DNA of 20,000 nucleotides from an uncultured virus (IMG/VR IMGVR_UViG_3300042975_000037) (taxonomy: Duplodnaviria; Heunggongvirae; Uroviricota; Caudoviricetes), in IMG/VR virus record IMGVR_UViG_3300042975_000037; one strand, 5' to 3'. Positions 4,128-17,922 of the stretch are shown here, piece by piece. The notes beneath the pieces were generated by a model, which saw nothing but the letters and a program-made list of their open reading frames with translations, was not told the origin of the DNA and did not search any database. Within the stretch, counting starts at the first letter, position 1. Each line of letters starts with the position of its first letter. The translations under genes and the position numbers were made by a program.

Positions 4128-5138
4128 TTATTTACCTAATATCATATTGGACAACATTTGAACCTTACTTCTAAATTCTGAAATAATATTTTCTTCTTTA
4201 TAAGTTATTCCCTGTATATTTTCTCCACATTTGCTACAATATTTGTTATTAATATCATTCTTATGCCCATTTGGACAAATATAAACATCTTGTTCCTTCC
4301 CGAACATCCCAAGTTTTGCGTTGGTGATTTGGCCTTTATTTGGTAAATCATCTAATTTGGCAAGTAGAATCTGCATATCTTTCAGATCTTCACAAGTATA
4401 AAACTCTTTTTCTGTCTCAAGTAATTTAATAGCATAATGTAGATCATCATCTATTAATTTTGTTACAGATTTAGCATCAAATAACTTGCAACTCTTTATT
4501 ACAAGAACTAATGTATCCTTATATTTGGGGAAAAGATTATATAAATAAGGGATAGAAAGAGACGGATCTATTTTTCTTATATATTCAATTACCCTTTTAG
4601 TATCTGTACCATCAGAATAATATAATTTCAGCATTTTTTCTACTAAAGATAATTGGGGATCTCTCATAATACTCTCCCATGTTGGTTGAGAAAGAAAATT
4701 TATGCCATTCTCTTTTACATATTCAACATTCTTTTTTGTTTCTAATTTATTGATCAAATCATCTGGATATACAATTTTCTCTTCTTTAATATCATTTTTA
4801 AATCTATTCTCTATTAAACATGCAGTTCCTGTGGCTGAAATCATCAGCATGCCTTTGCCTTTTCCGGAAATCTCGTCAAAGTCGATTCGAAAACCGACAA
4901 TAGCATTTGCTCCCAAGGCTTTTGCTTTTTTAGTTAAGCTGTCTTTAGCTGATTTATACATCAAATCCATTTTGTTCTGGTAAGTTCCAGAATTACCCCC
5001 AAATATATCAGTAAATGAAGCTGCTATATCTGAGAATAAATTTGTGCCTATTACAATATTAGAATTTACAACGCCCAAATAATCTTTTATAGGGCAACTT
5101 TCTATATTGCCTGTTGTAGTAATGATAAATCTTTCCAT
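4128..5138 (-). CDS. YbjQ/UPF0145-family domain protein with C-terminal zinc ribbon
   Basis: N-terminus IITTTGNIE...YLGVV...DIFGGNSGTYQ...KAKALGANAIVGFRIDFDEI...MLMISATGTA is the YbjQ signature. C-terminus has CPNGH...CSKC. Start is 5138 or 5147. Confidence 0.88.
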   Translation of the reverse strand: MERFIITTTGNIESCPIKDYLGVVNSNIVIGTNLFSDIAASFTDIFGGNSGTYQNKMDLMYKSAKDSLTKKAKALGANAIVGFRIDFDEISGKGKGMLMISATGTACLIENRFKNDIKEEKIVYPDDLINKLETKKNVEYVKENGINFLSQPTWESIMRDPQLSLVEKMLKLYYSDGTDTKRVIEYIRKIDPSLSIPYLYNLFPKYKDTLVLVIKSCKLFDAKSVTKLIDDDLHYAIKLLETEKEFYTCEDLKDMQILLAKLDDLPNKGQITNAKLGMFGKEQDVYICPNGHKNDINNKYCSKCGENIQGITYKEENIISEFRSKVQMLSNMILGK

Positions 5139-5159
5139 GAAAAACATTTATTTAAATAT

Positions 5160-5802: not shown

Positions 5803-6003
5803 AAGAAAAGATAAAATTATTAATAAAAAGGAAGACTATTTTTGAGGGTAAGCAGCCTTAAATAACTATTCTGTGGGCTTTGCCGTGTAATACCTCGTGC
5901 TGTTTGTCTCGCTGCATTACGATAAGAAAAAAGAGAATACTTACAATGAGCCAGTTGTAAGTAACTCTTCGCAAACTGACTTCAGATTATCCGTTCCATT
6001 ACG

Positions 6004-6011
6004 TAATTTTG
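6004..6011 (+). promoter_or_regulatory. -7 box restarting transcription of the tail/lysis genes after the moron
   Basis: TAATTTTG 17 bp before ATG 6029. No clear -33 TTTG. Confidence 0.55.
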
Positions 6012-6028
6012 TCCTAAAGCGCAATGAA

Positions 6029-9000
6029 ATGGACATTTACGGAATAGATGATAAGGTCATACTTTCGGCGATTTTGACAAAGGATGCCGAACATGAAGAG
6101 GAGATGATGAAATCCGACTTCGTGAAATTGTCGTGGAAATCAGCTAATAAGGTAAGACTTCCGGCCGGATCATACATCGTTCCTTTTTCTGACGGTCTCA
6201 AATATCGTCTTTTCAAGCCTTATGAGCCTGAGCAGACCGATTCCGCCACATGGAAGTATGAACCACAGTTCCAACACCCTAAAATGTGGCTTTCAAAGTT
6301 GCCGTTTACCTCAACTGTTCCCGATACGGATAATACAACACATGAGCAACTTGAATGGAGCTATACAGGCATTCTGACGACTCTTTTACAGAAAGTATGT
6401 GACTTTATCAATAATCTTTTTGGTCTTTCCGGTGATGATAAGTTTACTTATACCATAGTTGGAAATGCAGATACGACCGTATCATTATCATGTAGTAATG
6501 TTGATGTGCTTTCTGCGCTTTCTTCTATTGCATCAGCATGTAAGGATTATACGTGTGAGTGGCATTTAGACTGGAACAACAAGGCACTCTACTTCGGCCA
6601 GATTGCATATAACAACGGCGAGGGGACTACTCCGGTATTGAAGGTTGGCGACAACGTGGAGAAAACGTCTGTCAACAGGCCTTCGGAAGGGTATTATAAT
6701 GTCTTTCGTCCGCAAGGATCTACAAAGAATATGTCTAAAAGACTTGATACGGGAGAAAATGTATCAAGCAGTCTGAGACTGGAACTCAACAAGAAGGACT
6801 ATCCCGATGGCGTGATTGATATGCGCACGGATCCTAAAGAGCCCAAGATGGAGCTCGGCCTTATCTTCGATGATGATTATCCTCATGTTGATCTCTATGC
6901 CTACAATGTTCGTAAGAGGACGATGTACATTAAGGACACTTCCACCGGAAAGTACATGAAGGACAGTGCCGGGAACTATATCCTCAAGACAATATGGTAT
7001 ATGCGCCTTGCCTATCCGACTTATGACACAGACGGAAAAGTAACGGGCTGGACGGATTACGTGGTAGACAAAAAGCAGGTATTAGCAGGCTATACCCTTT
7101 GTGGGACATTCAAGGCAAATACTCATGATGGCGCACTTGCGTCAACGCTTGTTGGCCTTCCTTCCAATGCAGACGGATTTGAGATCAAATATCATGATGG
7201 TGCAGAAACCATTTATCCCAATACGACTTCGGGCGATTCAGGTATGGACGTGCTCCTCGGAGATTACGAGATAATGCCTGTTACCGCTGGAAATGATAGC
7301 ACCTTTGTCCCTTCCAACGAATCAGACGCCCTTATCCCACGTGGTGAAAGTACGCCTTCCCTGAAAGGAAATATAGTTGTCCTGTATAATATTGCTATGG
7401 GTGATGCAGAGATAGCATCCGCACAGGATGATTTGAAGAATGACGCCCTGAAAAAGATAGCACAGAAACGTGCAGACCAGAATAACTATACATTCAGCTC
7501 CGATCCGACAGTATTCGAGAAATCAAATCCCGGACTGTATATTGGCAGAACGGTAACTTATAATGACAATAACGGCTATACTCTTTCAACGAGAGTATTG
7601 AAGCTCGTAACGAAGTTGGACCATCCTTATGAGCAGGAGATTACGGTCGGAAATCAGCGGATCAATGGCCCTGTAACTCAACTAAAAGAGGATGTAAAGA
7701 CTGTTTTGTCTGGAGATTGGGAAGGAGCCGGTCTGAATCCCACACAAGTTAAGAATCTCATAAGCAATTATACTTCTATCCGCTATCTATCCAAGACCAC
7801 AGATGATACCGCAGCAGGCAACATAAAGTTCCTGAAGGGACTGCAAATTGGTGATACTTTCACGAGCGGTTCAGAAGGCGGAGTGTTCAGGAAAGATGCA
7901 GACGGAAAGACCTATATCGAAGTAGATAAGGCCTATATCCGCACGAAGGCCATCTTTGACACTCTGGAGATACGGAAGTTTGAGGGAGCATCCGGAAACA
8001 GGATCATGTCTGATGCAAAGATGAAGTGCACGAGGGTTGAGAATGTCACTGAAACAGACAACTCCGCTGCCTACAGATGTTATTTCAAAGGTTCTGACGG
8101 TGATGATACGATCAGTAATGATTTCGTTGTCGGTGACCTCGCCTTCTGCAAGAAACAGACGGCCGGAAGTACGCATTATTTCTGGCGCAAAGTAGTTGCG
8201 GTCGGAACAGCAGTCAATGCGAACAATGAACTGTACATAGACCTTTCTAATGTTTCCGGGGAATATGACACGGACAGTGACGCTCCTCTTGTTCAGGACG
8301 ACATCATTCAGTTGGGTAACGTAAGCGATTCCACGAGACAGGGCGCAATAATCGAGTATACTTCCGGAGAGGATTCGCCTTCTTATAAAATCTATCAGGG
8401 TATTAAGACATTCTCTCTTGCTGGTTGTGATATACTCTCTATGGGCTATAATTCTGCCACGGGCAAGGCTTGTATGAGGGTCTACGGAGAAGCCTACATA
8501 GGAGCAAAAGACAAGAAATCATATATCGAATTTGATGGAACGGCTGTAAAGATTGTCGGTGATGTGTCTATGAGCACCGTTGACGATTCAGGAGGTAATT
8601 CTACTCCTATAGCAACTGCCATCAATAATGCTCAGAAGAATGCCACGGATGCGAAGAAAGCAGCCGGGAACGCCGTGACAAATACCACCAGCGAGTATGC
8701 CCAAAGCGACAGTGCTACTACGGCACCCACAAGCGGATGGAGTACGACATCGCCGACATGGAAACAGGGGTATTATATCTGGGTACGGACAACTATAAAG
8801 TATGGTGACGGAACATCTAATACATTAGATCCGGTTGTCCTTACAGGTAATACTGGAGGTATCGGACCGGTTGGCCCTACTGGCCCGAAAGGAGACACAG
8901 GAGCAACAGGACCGCAAGGACCTAAAGGCAATACCGGTGCGCAGGGCATACAAGGTCTGCAAGGTTTGCAAGGAGATAAAGGCGATCAAGGTATAAAGGG

Positions 9001-11902
9001 CGAAAAAGGCGATACCGGAGCAACAGGTGCGTCGGGACAAACTTCTTACTTCCATATCAAGTACAGTAATTCCTCTGACGGCTCAAACATGAATGAAACC
9101 GGAGGCATGTACATCGGAACTTATGTTGACTTCACGCAAGCAGATTCAACAGATAAGACCAAATACACGTGGGTATTGGTTAAGGGTGCACAGGGCGTAC
9201 AAGGCAACCAAGGTATAGCAGGAGCGAATGGTTCGAATGGTCAGACATCGTATTTGCATATAGCTTACGCAGACAGCTCGGATGGCAAGACAAACTTCAA
9301 CCAGACATCGGGTACTTATATCGGCCAGTACGTTGATTTTACACAGGCGGATTCTACCGATTATACTAAGTATAATTGGACTTTAATAAAGGGAGAAAAG
9401 GGTAACACCGGAGCCACTGGTGCCACTGGTCCTACCGGTCCCAAGGGAGCCACTGGAGCGACAGGACCACAGGGACCAAAGGGAGATACGGGCAATGACG
9501 GTATAGCCGGCAAGGATGGGGTAGGCATCAAGTCTACAACCATCACCTATGCTGTATCGAACAGTGGAACGTCAGCGCCTACGAGTGGGTGGAGCCCGAG
9601 TGTACCTTCAGCCAGTCCCGGGCAGTATCTATGGACCAAGACCATTTGGGGGTATACTGACAATACGAATGAGACGGGTTATAGCGTAGCACGTTACGGC
9701 AGCAATGGTGCACAGGGCCCTAAGGGTAACACCGGAGCCACTGGTGCAACAGGTGCTACTGGCCCCAAGGGAGCCACTGGAGCGACAGGACCACAGGGAC
9801 CAAAGGGAGATACGGGCAATGACGGTATAGCCGGCAAGGATGGGGTAGGCATCAAGTCTACAACCATCACCTATGCTGTATCGAACAGTGGAACGTCAGC
9901 GCCTACGAGTGGGTGGAGCCCGAGTGTACCTTCAGCCAGTCCCGGGCAGTATCTATGGACCAAGACCATTTGGGGGTATACTGACAATACGAATGAGACG
10001 GGTTATAGCGTAGCACGTTACGGCAGCAATGGTGCACAGGGCCCTAAGGGTAACACCGGAGCCACTGGTGCAACAGGTGCTACTGGCCCCAAGGGAGCCA
10101 CTGGAGCGACAGGACCACAGGGACCAAAGGGAGATACGGGCAATGACGGTATAGCCGGCAAGGATGGGGTAGGCATCAAGTCTACAACCATCACCTATGC
10201 TGTATCGAACAGTGGAACGTCAGCGCCTACGAGTGGGTGGAGCCCGAGTGTACCTTCAGCCAGTCCCGGGCAGTATCTATGGACCAAGACCATTTGGGGG
10301 TATACTGACAATACGAATGAGACGGGTTATAGCGTAGCACGTTACGGCAGCAATGGTGCACAGGGCCCTAAGGGTAACACCGGAGCCACTGGTGCAACAG
10401 GTGCTACTGGCCCCAAGGGAGCCACTGGAGCGACAGGACCACAGGGACCAAAGGGAGATACGGGCAATGACGGTATAGCCGGCAAGGATGGGGTAGGCAT
10501 CAAGTCTACAACCATCACCTATGCTGTATCGAACAGTGGAACGTCAGCGCCTACGAGTGGGTGGAGCCCGAGTGTACCTTCAGCCAGTCCCGGGCAGTAT
10601 CTATGGACCAAGACCATTTGGGGGTATACTGACAATACGAATGAGACGGGTTATAGCGTAGCACGTTACGGCAGCAATGGTGCACAGGGCCCTAAGGGTA
10701 ACACCGGAGCCACTGGTGCAACAGGTGCTACTGGCCCCAAGGGAGCCACTGGAGCGACAGGACCACAGGGACCTACAGGCAATACTGGAGCTGCTGGACC
10801 GCAAGGACCACAGGGGCCACAGGGAACAGGTGTATCATCAGTTCGCAGATGGTACTACCTCGGCACTTCAGCACCGGGCAAACCTACAACTTCTACTCCT
10901 TCAAGTTCCTGGACTACTACTGAACCAGCATACGCAGCCGGGAAAGTACTTTATTATACTGACGAAGTTACTTATACTAATGGTAGTTTTGCTTACTCTA
11001 ATGTGGCCGTTTATTCCGCTTATACCGCAGCAACGACTGCGCAGGATAACCTTGCCAGAGGATTGGGCTATAGCAGCTACTCCGATATGTACTCGAAAGC
11101 TATAGCCAACGGCAATACTATCGTAAGCGGAGGATATGTCAGAACTTCTTTGTTAGATGTCAAGGCTATTGTCGCACAAGGATTACAGGCGCAGACCATA
11201 GATGCAAAGAATGCAACAATCAACAATCTCACTGTCAATAATGCCAATGTAACAGGAAAAGTAATGGCTACCAGTGGAAATATTGGTAAATGGAGCATAT
11301 CTGCAAAAGGCGGATTAGTTAATACTGATGGTAAAGCTTATCTATGTGCTCAGTATAAGGATTGTAGTTTGACAATATCTAATACTAGTGCACATCCTAT
11401 AATATATGGTGGTGATGCAATACAAATGCCTTCAAATACTGACTTTGTTTGTATAAAAAATGATGATCCGGCAGCTAATGCTTTACATGTAATAGGATCC
11501 AGTAGTTTTGACAACACTATGCGTATTGCCAAACCAGCATTTACTACGAAGTATATATCTAATTCTGATGGTGGTGGAAAGATTGGAACAGATGTAACTG
11601 CACAGCAAGATGGTACATCCGGAATATTTACATTCGGATTATGGCCTTCAGTTATAATTTGTAATAATGATAATACTGATATTGGATTATCACTTCCTGC
11701 AAATGTTGAAAACGGGCAGATGTGTATTATATATACTACTGGAAGGCAAATTTGGCTGTCCTCATGGGCTTCTGGAGGAATGAATTATTCTGATAGCTGG
11801 AAAAGATATAATGAATCAGTGCATGTAGCAAGTTATACATGCGTATTTTGTGTTTACTCTTCAGGAGCACAGAGGTGGACCTGCCGTGATACAAGGCAAT
11901 AA
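6029..11902 (+). CDS. Large tail tip / host-specificity protein with collagen-like repeats (~1957 aa)
   Basis: Baseplate-hub-like N-terminal region (by position), then a [19 protein letters not shown] motif and G-X-Y collagen runs alternating with Trp/Tyr/Thr-rich modules. Ends with a beta-spike-like [13 protein letters not shown]...ATSGNIG segment and an AT-rich C-terminal tip. ATG 6029 preferred over GTG 5897 because the -7 box lies between them. Confidence 0.88.
9398..10773 (+). repeat. In-frame tandem repeat, 324-bp (108-aa) unit, about 4.2 copies
   Basis: GGGAGATACG recurs at 9481, 9805, 10129 and 10453. Copies look identical from 9440 to 10773; only the first-copy leader (9424-9439) differs. 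Confidence 0.97.
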
Positions 11903-12724: not shown

Positions 12725-13172
12725 TTTAATCATGATCGTATTCTCGGTTATGATTCTATCCGGATGTCGGACAACGAAGTACATACCCGTAAAGGAGGAG
12801 CGTACCGATACGGTGTATAAAGCCAAAAAGGACAGCATACACTGGATTACGTACCACAATATTGTTGACAGCATAAGGTGGAGAGACAGTGTAGTAAATA
12901 CCGTTGACAATTCTGGCCATGTCAAAAAGAGCGAGATCTGGCACAGAGTAGATCACTATCATGCTACTAATGACAGTGTGGATTTTTATAAGAATCTCTT
13001 GAATAAGGAAAGAGAAAATAAGATTGATTCTATCCCGGCACCATATCCGGTGATCAAAGAAAAGAAATACGTTCCGAAAATTTATAAGGCCTCTATGTGG
13101 TTTTCTGTAATTATTATCCTGTTGGCCGGAGGATATTTCGGATTAAAGATTTATAAGGCAAAGAAAATATGA
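12708..13172 (+). CDS. Unimolecular spanin-like lipoprotein
   Basis: N-terminal lipobox LSG-C, beta-rich middle, C-terminal TM helix (WFSVIIILLAGGYFGL) and basic tail: the u-spanin topology. Lies between holin and endolysin. Confidence 0.78.
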   Translation: MKKMFSLIMIVFSVMILSGCRTTKYIPVKEERTDTVYKAKKDSIHWITYHNIVDSIRWRDSVVNTVDNSGHVKKSEIWHRVDHYHATNDSVDFYKNLLNKERENKIDSIPAPYPVIKEKKYVPKIYKASMWFSVIIILLAGGYFGLKIYKAKKI

Positions 13173-13348
13173 AAAAATTATTAATGATTTTTGCAGTATT
13201 GATGCTATGCAGTTGCGCATCAATCAAACGGGTGGATTGGAAGCCAGTCTACCAAAAAGAACTGAAAGAAGGGAAAATCACACGTAGTGATTACAACTAC
13301 CTAATGCAAGGACAGAAAGAACTGAATAAAATGAATAAGGATAGATAA
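13169..13348 (+). CDS. 59-aa lipoprotein not in the ORF track
   Basis: MKKLLMIFAVLMLCSCASIKRVDWKPVYQKELKEGKITRSDYNYLMQGQKELNKMNKDR. ATGA overlap with the spanin stop and TAATG overlap with the endolysin start. LCS-C lipobox. Confidence 0.85.
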   Translation: MKKLLMIFAVLMLCSCASIKRVDWKPVYQKELKEGKITRSDYNYLMQGQKELNKMNKDR

Positions 13349-13881
13349 TGACAGAAGAACAGCTTAGAAAGATAGCTCCTCATGTAAGTGAGGAGAACAT
13401 AAAGATTTACACCCCTTTACTGAATAAGTGGATGCCGTACTACAGCATTAACACGAAGTTGAGGCAGGCAGCGTTCATAGCCCAAATTTTACACGAAACT
13501 GACTGCTTTAGGTATACCGAAGAAATAGCCTCAGGGGCAGCATACGACACTGGAAGGCTTGCTATCAAGCTCGGTAACACCCCTCAAAAGGATGGCGATG
13601 GGGAAAAGTACAAGGGCAAAGGTTGTATCATGATAACGGGGAAAGATAACTATGAGGCCGTGTCAAAAGGATTAGGAGTTGATTTCGTTGCTCACCCGGA
13701 ACTACTTAAAGAGCCTTGTTATGCAGTACAATCTGCCTGCTGGTGGTGGACCACCCACGGACTCAATGCTCTGGCTGATAAAAAAGATTTTAAGGCAATC
13801 ACTCGAAAAATCAACGGCGGGTACAACGGTTACCTCGACAGGGTGATGTACTACAGGAGAGCACTGACAACATTATCTTAA
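13348..13881 (+). CDS. Glycoside hydrolase family 19 endolysin
   Basis: AAFIAQILHET...TEE...LGN...GDG.KYKGKG.I.ITGKDNY...SACWWW...ITRKINGGYNG..DR motifs. Confidence 0.93.
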   Translation: MTEEQLRKIAPHVSEENIKIYTPLLNKWMPYYSINTKLRQAAFIAQILHETDCFRYTEEIASGAAYDTGRLAIKLGNTPQKDGDGEKYKGKGCIMITGKDNYEAVSKGLGVDFVAHPELLKEPCYAVQSACWWWTTHGLNALADKKDFKAITRKINGGYNGYLDRVMYYRRALTTLS

Positions 13882-13907
13882 AAGAGGGGTATCCTGTAAA
13901 TACCCCT
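13880..13907 (-). terminator. Intrinsic terminator of the small minus-strand ORF; may also end the lysis mRNA
   Basis: AGGGGTAT (13885-13892) / ATACCCCT (13900-13907) with a 7-nt loop. Followed by CUUUU on the minus strand. Confidence 0.75.
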
Positions 13908-13917
13908 AAAAGTAGTA

Positions 13918-14049
13918 TTAGACCGCTTTTCTTTCATCGACCAGGAAAGAGAAATATTTCCCCTTCTTCGGATAAATCCGATGGCCGTTCCTAATGATAT
14001 AGGTACAAAAGATGCGGACTTTCCCATTTTCTTCTTGCGAATTGTTCAT
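13918..14049 (-). CDS. 43-aa basic/aromatic small protein not in the ORF track
   Basis: MNNSQEENGKVRIFCTYIIRNGHRIYPKKGKYFSFLVDERKAV. Preceded by AGAAAGGAGGT and followed after 10 bp by a terminator. Confidence 0.8.
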   Translation of the reverse strand: MNNSQEENGKVRIFCTYIIRNGHRIYPKKGKYFSFLVDERKAV

Positions 14050-14119
14050 ACTACGCACCTCCTTTCTTTTTGCGCATCAACCTGTAATTGAATACGCTTC
14101 TTGCACTTAGATAAGCGCA

Positions 14120-14228
14120 ACAAAAAGCCCACGGCTTACAGGACCATGGGCATTGTTTCTTTTTGTGGAAACACAAGAGTGAAGGATGTTTGTTCGTCGA
14201 AAGGAGTATGCTTTTTGAACAATTCGCA
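14120..14228 (-). ncRNA. Putative ~110-nt leader/antisense-acting RNA ending in an intrinsic terminator
   Basis: Begins just after a -7-like box and ends in GCCCAUGGU-CCUGUAA-GCCGUGGGC-UUUUUGUU. G-U pairs favour the minus strand. The 5' end is complementary to the downstream SD and start codon. Confidence 0.65.
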
Positions 14229-14231
14229 CTG

Positions 14232-14239
14232 CGAAGGTA
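14232..14239 (-). promoter_or_regulatory. -7-like promoter box for the leader RNA / small ORF
   Basis: TACCTTCG(CA), one mismatch to TAnnTTTG. Predicted start near 14227 coincides with the 5' end of the long-range pairing. Confidence 0.55.
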
Positions 14240-14283
14240 TACAATTTAGTATATTGTTTAGTAATTTTTTAAGTTAAAAATTG

Positions 14284-14334
14284 ACAAATGTATGCTATAC
14301 GTATGCTATGTATATGTTATACGTATACATTTGT
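14284..14334. repeat. 11-bp-period direct repeats nested in a 10-bp inverted repeat
   Basis: ACAAATGTAT (14284-14293) / ATACATTTGT (14325-14334). Units GTATGCTATAC, GTATGCTATGT, ATATGTTATAC and GTATAC start at 14290, 14301, 14312 and 14323. Confidence 0.75.
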
Positions 14335-14367
14335 AAATATATCATACATCATTTTTAAAAATATTCG

Positions 14368-14411
14368 TATCTTTGTGACGCGTTTTTATAGTGTTAGATT
14401 AAAAAAGGGCG
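14368..14411 (+). ncRNA. Promoter plus sRNA-like motif, copy 1 (lacks the right hairpin arm)
   Basis: TATCTTTG at 14368-14375, then GTTTTTATAGTGTTAGATTAAA (14382-14403; 21/22 identical to 18009-18030), then AGGGCG. Confidence 0.5.
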
Positions 14412-14452
14412 CAAAAATATAAGTTTTAAAATTCAAATGTTAGCTGATTAAA

Positions 14453-15445
14453 CTAAAATGGTACCTCATTCGTGTCATTTGTTTTAATATAATCTGGCTT
14501 TTTAACATCAAAATGCCTATCAAGGATAGCAGAGTCTCCAATTTTCATCACTTCTGCATCAAGATAATGATTAATGATATGGTTTGTTATTAAGTCTATT
14601 ACTATATTTTGCTTAAAAGGAAATAAATATTTGGAATAATTACTTTTTATCTCTCTTGATACAGCACAATGAATATCACTCTGAGAAATATAATATTCTA
14701 TGGAACTATATGTTGTTGTTTTCTTGATACTAATATTTCGTTCCATCCATCCAGGATCATTCAGTTTACTGATAAGGTCATTTATCTTTAATTTTTGGCA
14801 GCATTTGAAGATCCAATAGAGTAGTATAATAATTAATAGGACGATAAATATAATGCCGATAATATTGTTATTTATACCCAGAACACCGTTTAAAGATGTC
14901 CTGACTGTCTTAAAACACATCGAAATCATAGCAATTAAGGAAAATATACTAACGCCCTTTCCTAAAGGTTTAACCGCAAAGTGTTTACGTATTTCTTCTT
15001 TGCTTTTATCATCGTCTTTCCTTCTTTTTGTAGAAAGTCTTTCTTTTAGTGATTGATTTTCATCTTCCAATATTTTGACTTTGCCTTCTAAAAAAGTTAT
15101 ATGTGTAGCCAACCTATCTTTTTCATCATAGACCGCTTTCACCTCAATGAGGGAATCAATTTCGTCTTTTTTCTTGGCGATGATAGCCATTGTATCTTTA
15201 TTCTGATTTGCAGGAACAATATCAGTAATAGGGGGGTGAGCCGTCTGATGTTCCTCTTTAAATTTATCATAGAGTTTCTTAACTTTATCAAATGTTTCAC
15301 TGTTATGCTTAGCTTCAAGCTTACCTTCTGCGTGGTCAGGATGATACTTCCTAAGCGCATTTAATAGTGCAGACAAAATCTCCTCGTCAGTAGCATTCTC
15401 CGACAAGTTTAGCTGCTCTATAATATCTTTTCTATTCTCCGCCAT
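14453..15445 (-). CDS. J-domain (DnaJ-like) membrane protein
   Basis: N-terminal LNLSENATDEEI...LRKYHPD...FDKVKKLYDKF with intact HPD, then a coiled coil, two hydrophobic helices and an unknown C-terminal domain. Confidence 0.8.
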   Translation of the reverse strand: MAENRKDIIEQLNLSENATDEEILSALLNALRKYHPDHAEGKLEAKHNSETFDKVKKLYDKFKEEHQTAHPPITDIVPANQNKDTMAIIAKKKDEIDSLIEVKAVYDEKDRLATHITFLEGKVKILEDENQSLKERLSTKRRKDDDKSKEEIRKHFAVKPLGKGVSIFSLIAMISMCFKTVRTSLNGVLGINNNIIGIIFIVLLIIILLYWIFKCCQKLKINDLISKLNDPGWMERNISIKKTTTYSSIEYYISQSDIHCAVSREIKSNYSKYLFPFKQNIVIDLITNHIINHYLDAEVMKIGDSAILDRHFDVKKPDYIKTNDTNEVPF

Positions 15446-15486: not shown

Positions 15487-16550
15487 AATGATTATCCTCA
15501 ATTAGGTGATTAATAATTTTGAGGTTTTCTCGATATTCCTTATCTTTGCATCAATTATCAAAACCTCGTCAAGATGAAACTGATAGAATTTTCAAAACGT
15601 TTCCCCGATGAAGCTTCCTGCGAAGAGTATCTCAAGAATCATCGGGAAAAAGTTGGTGTTGTCTGTAAGCGCTGCGGTGGTCATCAACAAATCTGGGATA
15701 AGTATAATAAATGTTGGATTTGCAAGAAGTGCGGTCACAAGACGACGTTAACGGCTGATACCGTAATGCATAACAGTAAATTACCATTAATGTATTGGTT
15801 CACTGCCATACACCTGCTGACCTCCACGCGGAAAACGTTCTCGGCCCTTGAAATGCAGCGCCAGTTGGGTCATAAGCGTTATCAGCCAATTTGGGAGATG
15901 ATGCATAAACTACGGTCGGTAATGGGGCAGCGCGATACCACATATCAATTGTCCGAGAGTATTGAGCTTGACGAAGCCTTCTTTTCCACGGAAAATTCAG
16001 ACGAGACAAAGAAACAGGAAAAGCGGAAGGCAGGCGCAGGAAGTCAGCGCAAGTCAAAAGTTCTGGTAATGATAGAAAGTAAAGCAGTTCCTGAGAATAA
16101 ACAGAAGAAAGGAAAGAAAGATCGCAAGTCAGGTCATATAAAAATGAAGGTCGTTCCTGATGTACAGGCCTGTACCGTTACCGAAGTCTCAAAGGTCGCA
16201 GTTGCAGCGGATTCCAGAATAATCACGGATGACTCCAGATCTCATACGAAACTCAAAGGTTATTTTAAAGAGGTATATCCCATAAAGACCCTTCCTGAGC
16301 AGGCATCGAAAATACTGCCGTGGGTTCACACTGCCATATCGAATGCAAAGTCACTTTTGCTTGATATGTATCATGGCATCAAAGACGAGTTCCTTCAGAG
16401 TTATCTGGATGAATTCTGCTGGAAGTTCAACCGCAGATCATTTGGTGACAGACTTTTTGACAGGCTACTTGTTGCGGCTATGTCCTATAGGCCGATGTTT
16501 CAGCACAGAATCTATGATTGAAGAAAATCACTCAGTTGAGGATAATCATA
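15487..16550 (+). mobile_element. IS1595-family insertion sequence A (1064 bp)
   Basis: TIRs ATGATTATCCTCAATTAGGTGATT (15488-15511) and the reverse complement of 16526-16549 (ATGATTATCCTCAACTGAGTGATT). 8-bp direct repeat TAAATTGA at 15479-15486 and 16551-16558. Internal promoter TTTG-N19-TATCTTTG (15518-15548). Confidence 0.93.
15574..16521 (+). CDS. IS1595-family transposase
   Basis: FPDEASC, Zn ribbon CKRC...CKKC, FSALEMQRQLG HTH, IELDEAFF, ITDD, LPWVH and LQSYLDEFCWKFNRR. Confidence 0.96.
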   Translation: MKLIEFSKRFPDEASCEEYLKNHREKVGVVCKRCGGHQQIWDKYNKCWICKKCGHKTTLTADTVMHNSKLPLMYWFTAIHLLTSTRKTFSALEMQRQLGHKRYQPIWEMMHKLRSVMGQRDTTYQLSESIELDEAFFSTENSDETKKQEKRKAGAGSQRKSKVLVMIESKAVPENKQKKGKKDRKSGHIKMKVVPDVQACTVTEVSKVAVAADSRIITDDSRSHTKLKGYFKEVYPIKTLPEQASKILPWVHTAISNAKSLLLDMYHGIKDEFLQSYLDEFCWKFNRRSFGDRLFDRLLVAAMSYRPMFQHRIYD

Positions 16551-16747: not shown

Positions 16748-17922
16748 TTCTGTGTAGTGATTGCGGTACTAATTTTTGTTAATTCAATATATATATCTTT
16801 GTAAATAGCTAAAATACAACTACTTTTATGGAAAAATACAGACCGATGTTGCTCAAAGACTTTTTCAGTAGATTTCCTGACGAGGATAGTTGTGTTGACT
16901 ATTTCAAGGATATTCGATTGTCCATAGGGATGAAGTGCCCCAAATGCGGTGGAACTATTTTCAAATGGTATGTTGGCAGCCGCAAGTTTCAATGCTCCTC
17001 TTGTGGATATAGATTTCCATTGACCAAGGGAACGGTGATGGAACAAAGCCATCTGTCATTATCTGATTGGTTCTTCACTGCCAACATGATGACCTCCATA
17101 AAGCAAGTCTTGTCTGCAAAAGAGATACAACATCAACTGGAGAAGAAATATTATCCACCTGTCTGGCTTATGATGATGAAGTATAGGGACATCATGGGCA
17201 AAAGAGATGCCACATACAAATTATCTGATGAAGTGGAGCTCGATATTTCTTTCTTCCCCACGTCGTCAATAGCTAATGTCGATGGGGAGGATGTAATAAA
17301 GACACAAAAGACTCCTGTTCTCGTTATAGCAGAAAGCAAGCCTGTTGACGGCATATTGGCTGAATATTTCTCAAAACTCACTTTCCCTGAGTATGTTAAC
17401 AAGGCATCAAGACTATTACAGAAAGAGGACAAAATGAATATAAAGAAGGCGGTAAAATATATAAAGATGTTCGCAATACCCAACCAACAGTATGATACTA
17501 TAAAACCATTCGTTGAGGAAGCCGTTGCAAAGGAATCAAGAACCATTACCGATGGTGGTCACAATCTCATAAAGTTGAAAGAACTTGTCAAAGAGCATAT
17601 TCCTTACCCGGAAACAGAAGAAGATGTTCACGAAGTCGTCAAGACCAAACTGCCGTGGGTACATATAATAACTGGAGAATGCCGTAGCGGAATAGAAGCG
17701 ATTCATAAAGATGTTGATAAGAGATTCCTTCAACTCTATCTTAACGAATACTGTTGGAAGTTCAATCGTCGATTCTTCAGAGACAGCAAGAAGGAGAAAT
17801 TCGATTTGTTTGACCACCTTATTAGAATATCAGCTCAATACACATCAGATATAAAATGGAGGGATTATGAGAAGATGGCCAACGCTATTAATATTTGTTA
17901 GTACCGCAATCACCACACAGAA
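16748..17922 (+). mobile_element. IS1595-family insertion sequence B (1175 bp)
   Basis: 25-bp TIRs TTCTGTGT(A/G)GTGATTGCGGTACTAA at 16748-16772 and 17898-17922, one mismatch. 8-bp direct repeat AACTTTTT at 16740-16747 and 17923-17930. Confidence 0.93.
16828..17901 (+). CDS. IS1595-family transposase (divergent)
   Basis: FPDEDSC, CPKC...CSSC, LSAKEIQHQL, VELDISFF, ITDGG, LPWVH and LQLYLNEYCWKFNRR. Stop codon lies inside the right TIR. Confidence 0.94.
   Translation: MEKYRPMLLKDFFSRFPDEDSCVDYFKDIRLSIGMKCPKCGGTIFKWYVGSRKFQCSSCGYRFPLTKGTVMEQSHLSLSDWFFTANMMTSIKQVLSAKEIQHQLEKKYYPPVWLMMMKYRDIMGKRDATYKLSDEVELDISFFPTSSIANVDGEDVIKTQKTPVLVIAESKPVDGILAEYFSKLTFPEYVNKASRLLQKEDKMNIKKAVKYIKMFAIPNQQYDTIKPFVEEAVAKESRTITDGGHNLIKLKELVKEHIPYPETEEDVHEVVKTKLPWVHIITGECRSGIEAIHKDVDKRFLQLYLNEYCWKFNRRFFRDSKKEKFDLFDHLIRISAQYTSDIKWRDYEKMANAINIC

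Follow-up and report, generated by a model that had tools for sequence, protein, structure and literature searches.

Why should a very small phage gene be surrounded by RNA hairpins whose loops are complementary to one another? The question is raised by a 20,000-nt stretch of DNA from an uncultured virus (IMG/VR record IMGVR_UViG_3300042975_000037; hereafter the window), which carries on its minus strand an open reading frame (ORF) of 43 amino acids (aa), MNNSQEENGKVRIFCTYIIRNGHRIYPKKGKYFSFLVDERKAV (13918..14049 including the stop codon), flanked by 3 such hairpins. The first-pass annotation of this DNA had proposed that a short terminated leader recognizes the read-through mRNA at 2 sites flanking the ORF and so forms an RNA switch. 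From our analysis of the locus and its relatives, we think it likely that the ORF is part of an expression cassette, conserved and self-contained, of Bacteroidota-type phages, whose mRNA would be translationally closed and would carry a leader terminator and loop contacts. The cassette would combine its own promoter, a structured leader, the small ORF and its own terminator, and the window copy appears to be somewhat degenerate. Its approximate extent, 13864..14263 on the minus strand, was taken from the alignment of relatives (A6, described below) and from a related phage contig in run X17, which departs from the window sequence after 13863.

The 3 hairpins and their complementary 7-nt loops were found on the minus strand where the first-pass annotation had placed them. 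H1, the intrinsic terminator of the leader, is a stem-loop at 14151-14127 (14122..14151 with its U-tract) with 9 bp including 2 G-U pairs, the loop CCUGUAA at 14142-14136, and a UUUUU tract at 14126-14122; it was recovered by a terminator scan. H2 (14097-14072) stands directly 5' of the Shine-Dalgarno (SD) sequence, contains 9 bp with 1 bulged U and 1 G-U pair, and ends in the loop UUACAGG (14087-14081), which the H1 loop complements. H3, the 3' terminator hairpin (13907-13885; 13877..13907 including the weak U-tail CUUUUAAG), consists of 8 perfect bp and a loop at 13899-13893 with the same UUACAGG 7-mer as H2. Between H1 and H2 lies a fourth hairpin, H4 (14120-14101, 8 bp with 1 G-U pair, loop AUCU), and the minimum free energy (MFE) fold contains an additional small hairpin, Hx (14154..14173, arms UGUUUC and GAAACA around CACAAAAA), at the site of a UCUC...GAGA hairpin in the family. 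The mismatches in the stems of H1, H2, and H4 had been described as G-U pairs valid on the minus strand only, and this holds, because on the plus strand they become A-C mismatches. In the MFE fold computed with RNAfold, the loops of H2 and H3 can be shortened to an ACA triloop by 2 U-G pairs between their UU and GG, so the 7-nt loop of these hairpins is one of 2 near-equal readings.

This arrangement is not expected by chance in the window. A strict scan, which misses H2 because of its bulge, found 56 minus-strand hairpins with a stem of at least 6 bp and a loop of exactly 7 nt in the 20 kb, and the expectation for 2 of them lying less than 400 nt apart with perfectly complementary loops is approximately 0.004 (about 60 nearby pairs x 4^-7). 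The word TTACAGG occurs 6 times on both strands compared with 2.44 expected, and 3 of these 6 copies fall inside 262 nt at this locus. Folding of the 381-nt region gave a z-score of -6.49, and none of 100 shuffled sequences folded as well.

To place the module among its relatives, we collected loci encoding a related protein. At least 247 viral contigs encode such a relative (247 of 316 candidate IMG/VR stretches retrieved with back-translated patterns), of which 80 were kept; 2 further scans that overlapped the first yielded 26 of 127 and 101 of 121. A regular expression for the protein motif located the ORF in 174 sequences, comprising the window and 173 of the 186 loci L004-L189 (the other 13 loci were dropped), and these sequences correspond to 104 distinct modules. 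An H1-like terminator is present in 88 of the 104, the other 16 being truncated or members of distant sub-families. More remote relatives within the protein family (L084-L109, L133) lack this leader, and the RNA architecture is restricted to one clade together with L088/L094 and L155. Alignment A6 contains 76 distinct modules, namely the window and the 75 loci that were still distinct after trimming, and the structure evaluated on it was written from one typical row, L004.

Across the 75 pairs of this structure, 89.6% of 5,661 cells were paired, compared with 36.8-46.1% when the partners were displaced by 1-3 columns. Both sides have changed in 51 pairs, and none of 500 shuffles reached the observed value on any of 5 measures. 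These controls are inflated both by the origin of the structure in a row of the same alignment and by the close kinship of many rows, and the tool itself cautions that an alignment of related sequences may outscore all shuffles. The strongest support accordingly comes from the number of independent loop codes and from the G-U intermediates, rather than from the shuffle counts. All 9 pairs of the H2 stem and 7 of the 8 pairs of the H3 stem have changed on both sides. The H1 stem is mostly invariant, with GCCC/GGGC and a U-tract of at least 5 U in 76 of 76 rows.

The contact between the loops of H1 and H3 is paired in 98.5% of 456 cells (19-55% when slid), and 3 of its 6 pairs have changed on both sides. 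At the variable position the pair is UA in 42 rows, CG in 22, UG in 10, and something else in 2. The codes found are CCUGUA(A):(U)UACAGG, CCUGCAA:UUGCAGG, CCUGCA:UGCAGG, and CCUGCU(A):(U)AGCAGG, with the divergent versions CCCGUG:CACGGG in L088, UCCUG:CAGGA in L094, and CCAA:UUGG, of only 4 bp, in L155. The L168 group (10 rows of A6) combines CCUGUA with UGCAGG by means of a G-U pair, a state compatible with RNA pairing but not with a shared DNA word. The equivalent contact between H1 and H2 is paired in 87.7% of cells, here too both partners have changed at 3 of 6 pairs, and 11 of the 76 rows (the L063 group, L061, L088, L094, L158, L159, and L167) carry an unrelated H2 loop.

The relatives also contain a contact that is absent from the window. 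An additional hairpin located after the anti-SD segment of the leader, H0, exposes a loop complementary to that of H4, just 3' of the terminator, and this contact is paired in 98.0% of cells, with both partners changed in all 6 of its pairs. Among the relatives, 8 H0:H4 codes occur: CUGUCA:UGACAG, CUGUAA:UUACAG, AUGGCUA:UAGCCA, CUUCCG:CGGAAG, AUCGCCA:UGGCGA, AUCACCA:UGGUGA, GCUACCAAA:UUUGGUAG, and AAGCC:GGCUU. Between the H0 loop CUGUCA and the H1 loop CCUGUA(A) there is no complementarity. Near kin differ by single compensatory swaps, as in the pairs L010/L015 and L158/L167, which are 93% and 88% identical outside the loops, respectively. The complementarity that the first-pass annotation saw in a single sequence thus covaries across the 76 modules, G-U intermediates included, which argues for selected RNA-RNA pairing.

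Two other explanations of the repeated loop letters were weighed against these data. The first is that TTACAGG/CCTGTAA constitutes 3 sites, one of them inverted, for a DNA-binding regulator or a recombinase, and that the hairpins are incidental. The 3 loops are indeed one 7-mer in 2 orientations, and potential operator palindromes lie just upstream of the promoter. However, each copy forms exactly the tip of a hairpin with a covarying stem, the G-U rows of the L168 group pair the H1 loop with a different DNA word, and the wobble pairs of the stems work on one strand only, which makes this explanation highly improbable. The second is that the loops of H2 and H3 are bound by an RNA-binding protein, possibly the 43-aa product itself in an autoregulatory or antitermination circuit, with H1 masking these loops or competing for them. 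The product is small, basic, and beta-rich with conserved aromatic residues, and the H2 and H3 loops are alike in most rows. Yet the loop letters differ between clades although the core of the protein is constant, the feature that persists is complementarity to H1, including its G-U states, the H2 loop is unrelated in the 11 rows listed above, and fold and family searches with the protein were blank. We regard this second explanation as improbable.

The feature predicted to contribute most to repression lies outside the loops: a long-range pairing of the RNA 5' end and an anti-SD segment with the SD and the first codons. The segment UGCGAAUUGUUCA (14216..14228, minus strand) forms the 5' strand of this long-range helix and was found both as a 13-nt perfect inverted repeat (I6) and in the MFE fold. 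Located near the RNA 5' end, 14228-14216 perfectly complements the 13 nt at 14048-14036, which comprise the UG of the AUG and the following codons up to codon 5. The anti-SD segment GCAUACUCCUUUC (14199..14211, minus strand) pairs in the MFE fold with the region of the extended SD GAAAGGAGGUGC (14055..14066, minus strand), which stands 8 nt ahead of the AUG and includes AGGAGGT in 76 of 76 rows. Through these 2 pairings the leader closes over the ribosome-binding site, and in the MFE fold H1, H4, H2, and Hx are all located within the junction that the long-range helices enclose. Both helices are maintained in the family: the 5'-end/first-codon helix (family helix 1) is paired in 99.1% of cells and has double-sided changes at 9 of its 10 pairs, and the anti-SD:SD helix (family helix 3) in 97.7%, with variation nearly confined to the anti-SD side. 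Hx (family helix 6) is paired in 72.8%. A typical relative folds with a z-score of -8.99, and its MFE structure is the closed one. The interpretation of the first-pass annotation was therefore sound in recognizing a selected pairing and a real gene, but it overlooked the long-range helix, the H0:H4 contact, and the difference between H1:H2, which is dispensable, and H1:H3, which nearly all modules have.

The SD itself is constant: an extended version of 11 nt, GAAAGGAGGUG, is shared without change by all 76 modules. That the SD does not vary while its partner in the leader does suggests that something besides the leader reads it. The anti-SD of the relatives' leaders, ACACCUCC, resembles the 3' end of 16S rRNA. 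Two candidate elements for alternative folds were rejected. An antiterminator formed by the window inverted repeat I7 (14217-14201 with 14137-14121) had, by eye, no counterpart in the aligned relatives, and a local hairpin between an SD mimic and the anti-SD, considered as an "on" state, was paired in 75.9% of cells and did not exceed the controls.

TAnnTTTG is the consensus of the Bacteroidota -7 promoter element. A candidate box of this type, TACCTTCG (14232..14239, minus strand), aligns with the family TAnnTTTG with 1 mismatch; in A6 the positions T25, T29, T30, and G32 of this box are invariant and A26 and T31 reach a conservation of at least 90%. A pattern scan also found a perfect TAnnTTTG box, TACATTTG (14285..14292, minus strand), approximately 55 nt upstream of the aligned box; it is not conserved in the family alignment, and its use would lengthen the 5' end of the window RNA. 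The sizes predicted by the first-pass annotation for the 2 RNAs, approximately 110 and 345 nt, agree with this anatomy. Between the module and the next gene upstream, which encodes a DnaJ-domain protein, positions 14280-14345 (both strands) hold an extended but imperfect palindrome, ATTGACAAATGTAT / ATACATTTGTAAAT, and TATGCTATACGTAT repeats; it overlaps perfect TAnnTTTG boxes at 14292-14285 (minus strand) and 14326-14333 (plus strand), and could be an operator, a pair of divergent promoters, or a recombination joint. In L004-L083, a conserved small palindrome, ATTAAAAnnGTTAAT, is located approximately 40-70 nt upstream of the -7 box (around 1215-1245 in L010), beside the start of a divergent gene, and is likely an operator for a DNA-binding regulator of the cassette.

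The anatomy of the cassette, its conservation, and the covariation of its pairings are observed, and from them we propose the following mechanism. H1 has the canonical form of an intrinsic terminator and its U-tract is invariant, so that a fraction of transcripts should stop at approximately 105 nt, and only read-through past H1 would yield the mRNA. In the full-length RNA of approximately 350 nt, the 5' end would pair with codons 2-5 and the anti-SD with the extended SD, both helices closing a multi-hairpin junction. This junction would be knitted together by kissing contacts, H1:H2 beside the SD and, in the relatives, H0:H4; as the H1 loop also matches that of H3, the 3' end may in addition be tied to the leader. 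Expression of the 43-aa protein would thus be limited twice, first by attenuation and then by occlusion of the SD and the start codon. Termination at H1 and a block to ribosomes by the closed fold are inferred from anatomy and covariation, as is the need for something that opens this fold, which might be RNA processing, a trans-acting factor, or altered ribosomes. Contigs from RNA libraries cover 13961-14195 (run X18, probably DNA) and 13905-14093 (run X19, an oligo-dT RNA-seq library) and are a weak hint of transcription; runs X17, X18, and X20 are probably DNA, and the library contigs span only parts of the module.

Besides the origin of the tested structure and the kinship of the aligned rows, several points weigh against this proposal. 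H1 cannot kiss H2 and H3 together in one molecule, a fact that a pure cis picture leaves without explanation, and the H1:H2 contact cannot be essential because it is absent in 11 of 76 rows. The window copy has no H0 and the loop of its H4 is unpartnered, so it is a derived and simplified member of the family. The 5' end of the window RNA is uncertain, as the aligned -7 box is mismatched and a perfect box lies 55 nt upstream. The RNA-library contigs carry neither strand nor end information and may reflect DNA carry-over, and the alignment lends no support to the SD-mimic hairpin, through which the cassette would act as a clean switch. The host phylum is deduced solely from the promoter motif and from distant tape-measure matches of 23-26% identity. 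Finally, 2 reports describe the ribosomes of Bacteroidia as blind to the SD (PMC7797042, PMC9976891), and occlusion of the SD may therefore not act here as it does in Escherichia coli. This blindness reportedly arises because bS21, bS18, and bS6 sequester the anti-SD of the ribosome, and rpsU is the SD-bearing exception (PMC7797042, PMC9976891, PMC13000453). The extended and strongly conserved SD of the module resembles that of the Flavobacteriales rpsU (bS21) mRNA, which likewise occurs in a lineage reported to ignore the SD normally (PMC9976891, PMC13000453). The gene and the organism are different, and dependence of the module on bS21-free ribosomes is a lead only.

The double match of H1 brings in a further explanation, which can coexist with the cis model. 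The RNA of approximately 105 nt that ends at H1 could act in trans as a same-strand antisense RNA on the read-through or processed mRNAs of its own phage or of a co-infecting relative, docking through H0:H4, H1:H2, and H1:H3 and then covering the SD and the start codon. The varied loop codes would then provide immunity or incompatibility specificity, as in c4 of phages P1 and P7 or in the RNAs that control plasmid copy number. This short RNA would hold all 4 antisense elements, namely the 5' anti-start segment, the anti-SD, the H0 loop, and the H1 loop; the invariant U-tract argues for selected termination at H1; and H1 matches 2 loops that a single cis molecule could not occupy together. In addition, the loops are the most changeable part of the module, with 8 unrelated H0:H4 codes, at the same time as the H1 stem and the SD are frozen, a pattern that resembles diversifying selection. 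However, cis and trans pairing are computationally indistinguishable, each pairing could equally form within one molecule, and on a read-through mRNA a trans copy is expected to lose the competition against the leader in cis. Moreover, compensatory drift within a cis structure would also give rise to different codes, and no orthogonal sets of copies were seen, as a single ORF and a single H1 were found in each of the 5 contigs searched whole. We therefore consider a trans-acting leader possible, although on balance the doubts prevail. A more specific version, in which the approximately 105-nt leader is a code-specific trans RNA that silences the gene in the phage itself and in co-infecting kin with the same code, and the SD limits translation to ribosomes with an exposed anti-SD, seems to us rather unlikely. 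If it were true, the module would be a self/non-self lock-and-key with 2 or 3 loop codes that evolves like plasmid incompatibility groups, and translation of the 43-aa protein would be confined to ribosomes poor in, for example, bS21, a state that Bacteroidia normally avoid.

To learn what is being controlled, we analyzed the 43-aa protein. A HMMER scan of 1.84 billion representative sequences returned 41 proteins at E <= 0.001, of which 39 are 39-75 aa long. The 2 long repetitive matches, P0002 and P0032, were omitted from the protein alignment (A3), and in their Pfam rows no stretch passes by itself. The core consensus of A3 is IFCRYIxKNGKRIYPKxxKxFxFxVD, with G22, Y26, and F33 invariant. 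The AlphaFold model (pLDDT 82.3) contains 4 beta strands arranged in a small beta-sheet, and the peptide has a net charge of approximately +5 (by our count), conserved aromatic residues, and no hydrophobic helix. The gene had been described as uncalled, and this is not wholly so: it is a real small gene, and a word-index protein search returned the identical protein, alone, showing that it is on record once. The best Pfam match, DUF7443, scored 14.1 bits and thus fell below its cut-off of 27. The window protein had no match in NCBIfam and none in PHROGs, where 7 of 40 family members weakly match an unannotated phrog, and 0 of 40 members matched the PADLOC defence families. A search of the PDB with the model gave a best E-value of 0.87 with ribosomal eS21-like rows, which is not meaningful, and the ESM Atlas returned unnamed clusters only, below 0.9. 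That the product binds nucleic acids, or is harmful and needs a low level, is a guess.

The RNA did not correspond to a catalogued family either, as the first-pass annotation had suspected. A cmscan of 13000-15000 against Rfam 15 at E <= 10 gave chance-level rows only, the best in the module being RsaE with 18 bits (gathering threshold 79, E 6.7), and 4 relatives (L010, L063, L088, and L135) gave 0 matches at E <= 1 against the same models, which include C4, P4 CI-type, and guanidine-IV/mepA RNAs. Full-text literature searches found no description of this module.

The antisense RNA c4, encoded in the immI operon of the phages P1 and P7, recognizes its target through its a'/b' loops and is processed by RNase P. 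Among known systems it is a natural comparison, reportedly described by Citron and Schuster in 1990 (as cited in PMC8198154). In c4-icd-ant of P1 and P7, as set out in PMC8198154, an RNA encoded upstream on the same strand has 2 short matches near the ribosome-binding site, the letters of which differ among related phages. The module is similar in being phage-borne, in having the putative regulator upstream of the target on the same strand and transcript, in exposing 2 short segments that match sites close to where ribosomes would bind a small ORF downstream, and in having different sets of matching letters in related phages. The c4-type order was also found, with H0:H4 and H1:H2 in the same 5'-to-3' order and H2 abutting the SD, although the window has H1:H2 only. 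In contrast to c4, the module shows no sequence or Rfam relation to that RNA, its putative short RNA would be released by an intrinsic terminator and not by processing, and it has, in addition, a helix that directly joins the 5' end to the SD region and, at the 3' terminator, a third match. The 43-aa protein is moreover the sole downstream product, since H3 ends the unit and neither an antirepressor operon nor a further same-strand gene follows.

Toxin-antitoxin (TA) systems of type I offer a second comparison. In hok/sok the toxin mRNA is inhibited by folding back on itself. For aapA1/IsoA1 of Helicobacter pylori, PMC5416894 describes a type I toxin mRNA with a self-inhibiting fold and kissing loops. 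The module is similar: it has a small ORF, long-range pairing with the SD region of the full-length transcript is predicted to impede translation, kissing loops would start RNA-RNA recognition, and the unit is carried by a mobile element. An mRNA fold that sequesters the SD and the start codon, by which type I toxins are characterized, was found in the module from predicted folds and covariation. Unlike type I toxins, the peptide is basic and beta-rich, is not a hydrophobic membrane peptide, and matches no family. On the plus strand, 13880-14260 contains no TAnnTTTG box, and no opposite-strand or divergent antitoxin gene is evident. Antisense read-through transcripts are possible in most relatives because the cassette lies antisense inside an operon. 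The label of a TA-like, abortive-infection, or immunity module, given by the first-pass annotation, is a guess. The module is a member of neither the c4-type nor the type I toxin class; the RNA and the microprotein are new families built on known regulatory principles.

The genomic context shows how the cassette is carried. In most contigs it lies antisense, among genes of the opposite strand. Its neighbors in the window are a same-strand gene for a DnaJ-domain membrane protein and a convergent gene for a GH19 endolysin. One IMG/VR contig is identical to the window across the module, yet its lysin gene is divergent; together with the break of the X17 contig after 13863, this indicates that the cassette moves as a unit. 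The 3' end of the endolysin gene (13818-13881, plus strand) differs in its last codons between the window phage and relatives, and the break points, approximately 13818 in L001 and 13863 in the X17 contig, suggest that exchange of the cassette rewrites the C-terminus of the lysin. Both the module and the lysin are missing from the closest virus record (G001). Among GenBank phages, no DNA match was found to the window or the L010 module, nor a tblastn match to the 43-aa protein, and the H1 DNA pattern gave 17 matches in 185,579 representative genomes, all of them unrelated GC-rich terminators with no ORF motif nearby. Window DNA was found in sludge, wastewater, and fermentation metagenomes. The tape-measure protein matches those of Bacteroides phages, and these matches and the near-invariant TAnnTTTG box point to a host in the Bacteroidota.

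Other features of the window lie outside the cassette. Upstream of the module, 14453-15445 (minus strand) encodes the 330-aa neighbor, which combines a DnaJ (J) domain at the N-terminus with a coiled-coil and a hydrophobic segment. It was rejected as a conserved partner, as a search based on it gave just 1 near-identical IMG/VR contig. Beyond it, 15574-16521 and 16828-17901 (both plus strand) are 2 different, adjacent transposase genes of the IS1595 family (ISXO2-like), and their position side by side marks this end of the phage genome as an insertion hotspot. A 2,001-aa tail-fibre-like ORF (5897-11902, plus strand) contains several near-identical copies, in tandem, of a collagen-like (G-x-y) segment followed by a conserved module of approximately 90 aa. 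The minus-strand ORF at 4128-5147, which runs antisense to the genes for structural proteins, encodes 339 aa with a YbjQ-like domain at the N-terminus. A 196-aa ORF follows it on that strand, and here the late region carries a further opposite-strand insert.

RNA control in the Bacteroidota and their phages is poorly charted, and the unit described here, an RNA plus a microprotein present in at least 247 viral contigs, is absent from the catalogues searched. Its architecture of one long-range helix and 3 loop-loop contacts is unusually well backed by natural compensatory mutations, and the natural orthogonal kissing-loop codes are usable for distinguishing cis from trans riboregulation in Bacteroides. 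The unit also reveals a conserved 43-aa protein that phages appear to keep low with great care. Given an invariant strong SD in a lineage described as SD-blind, the question of when Bacteroidia make use of SD pairing could become testable.

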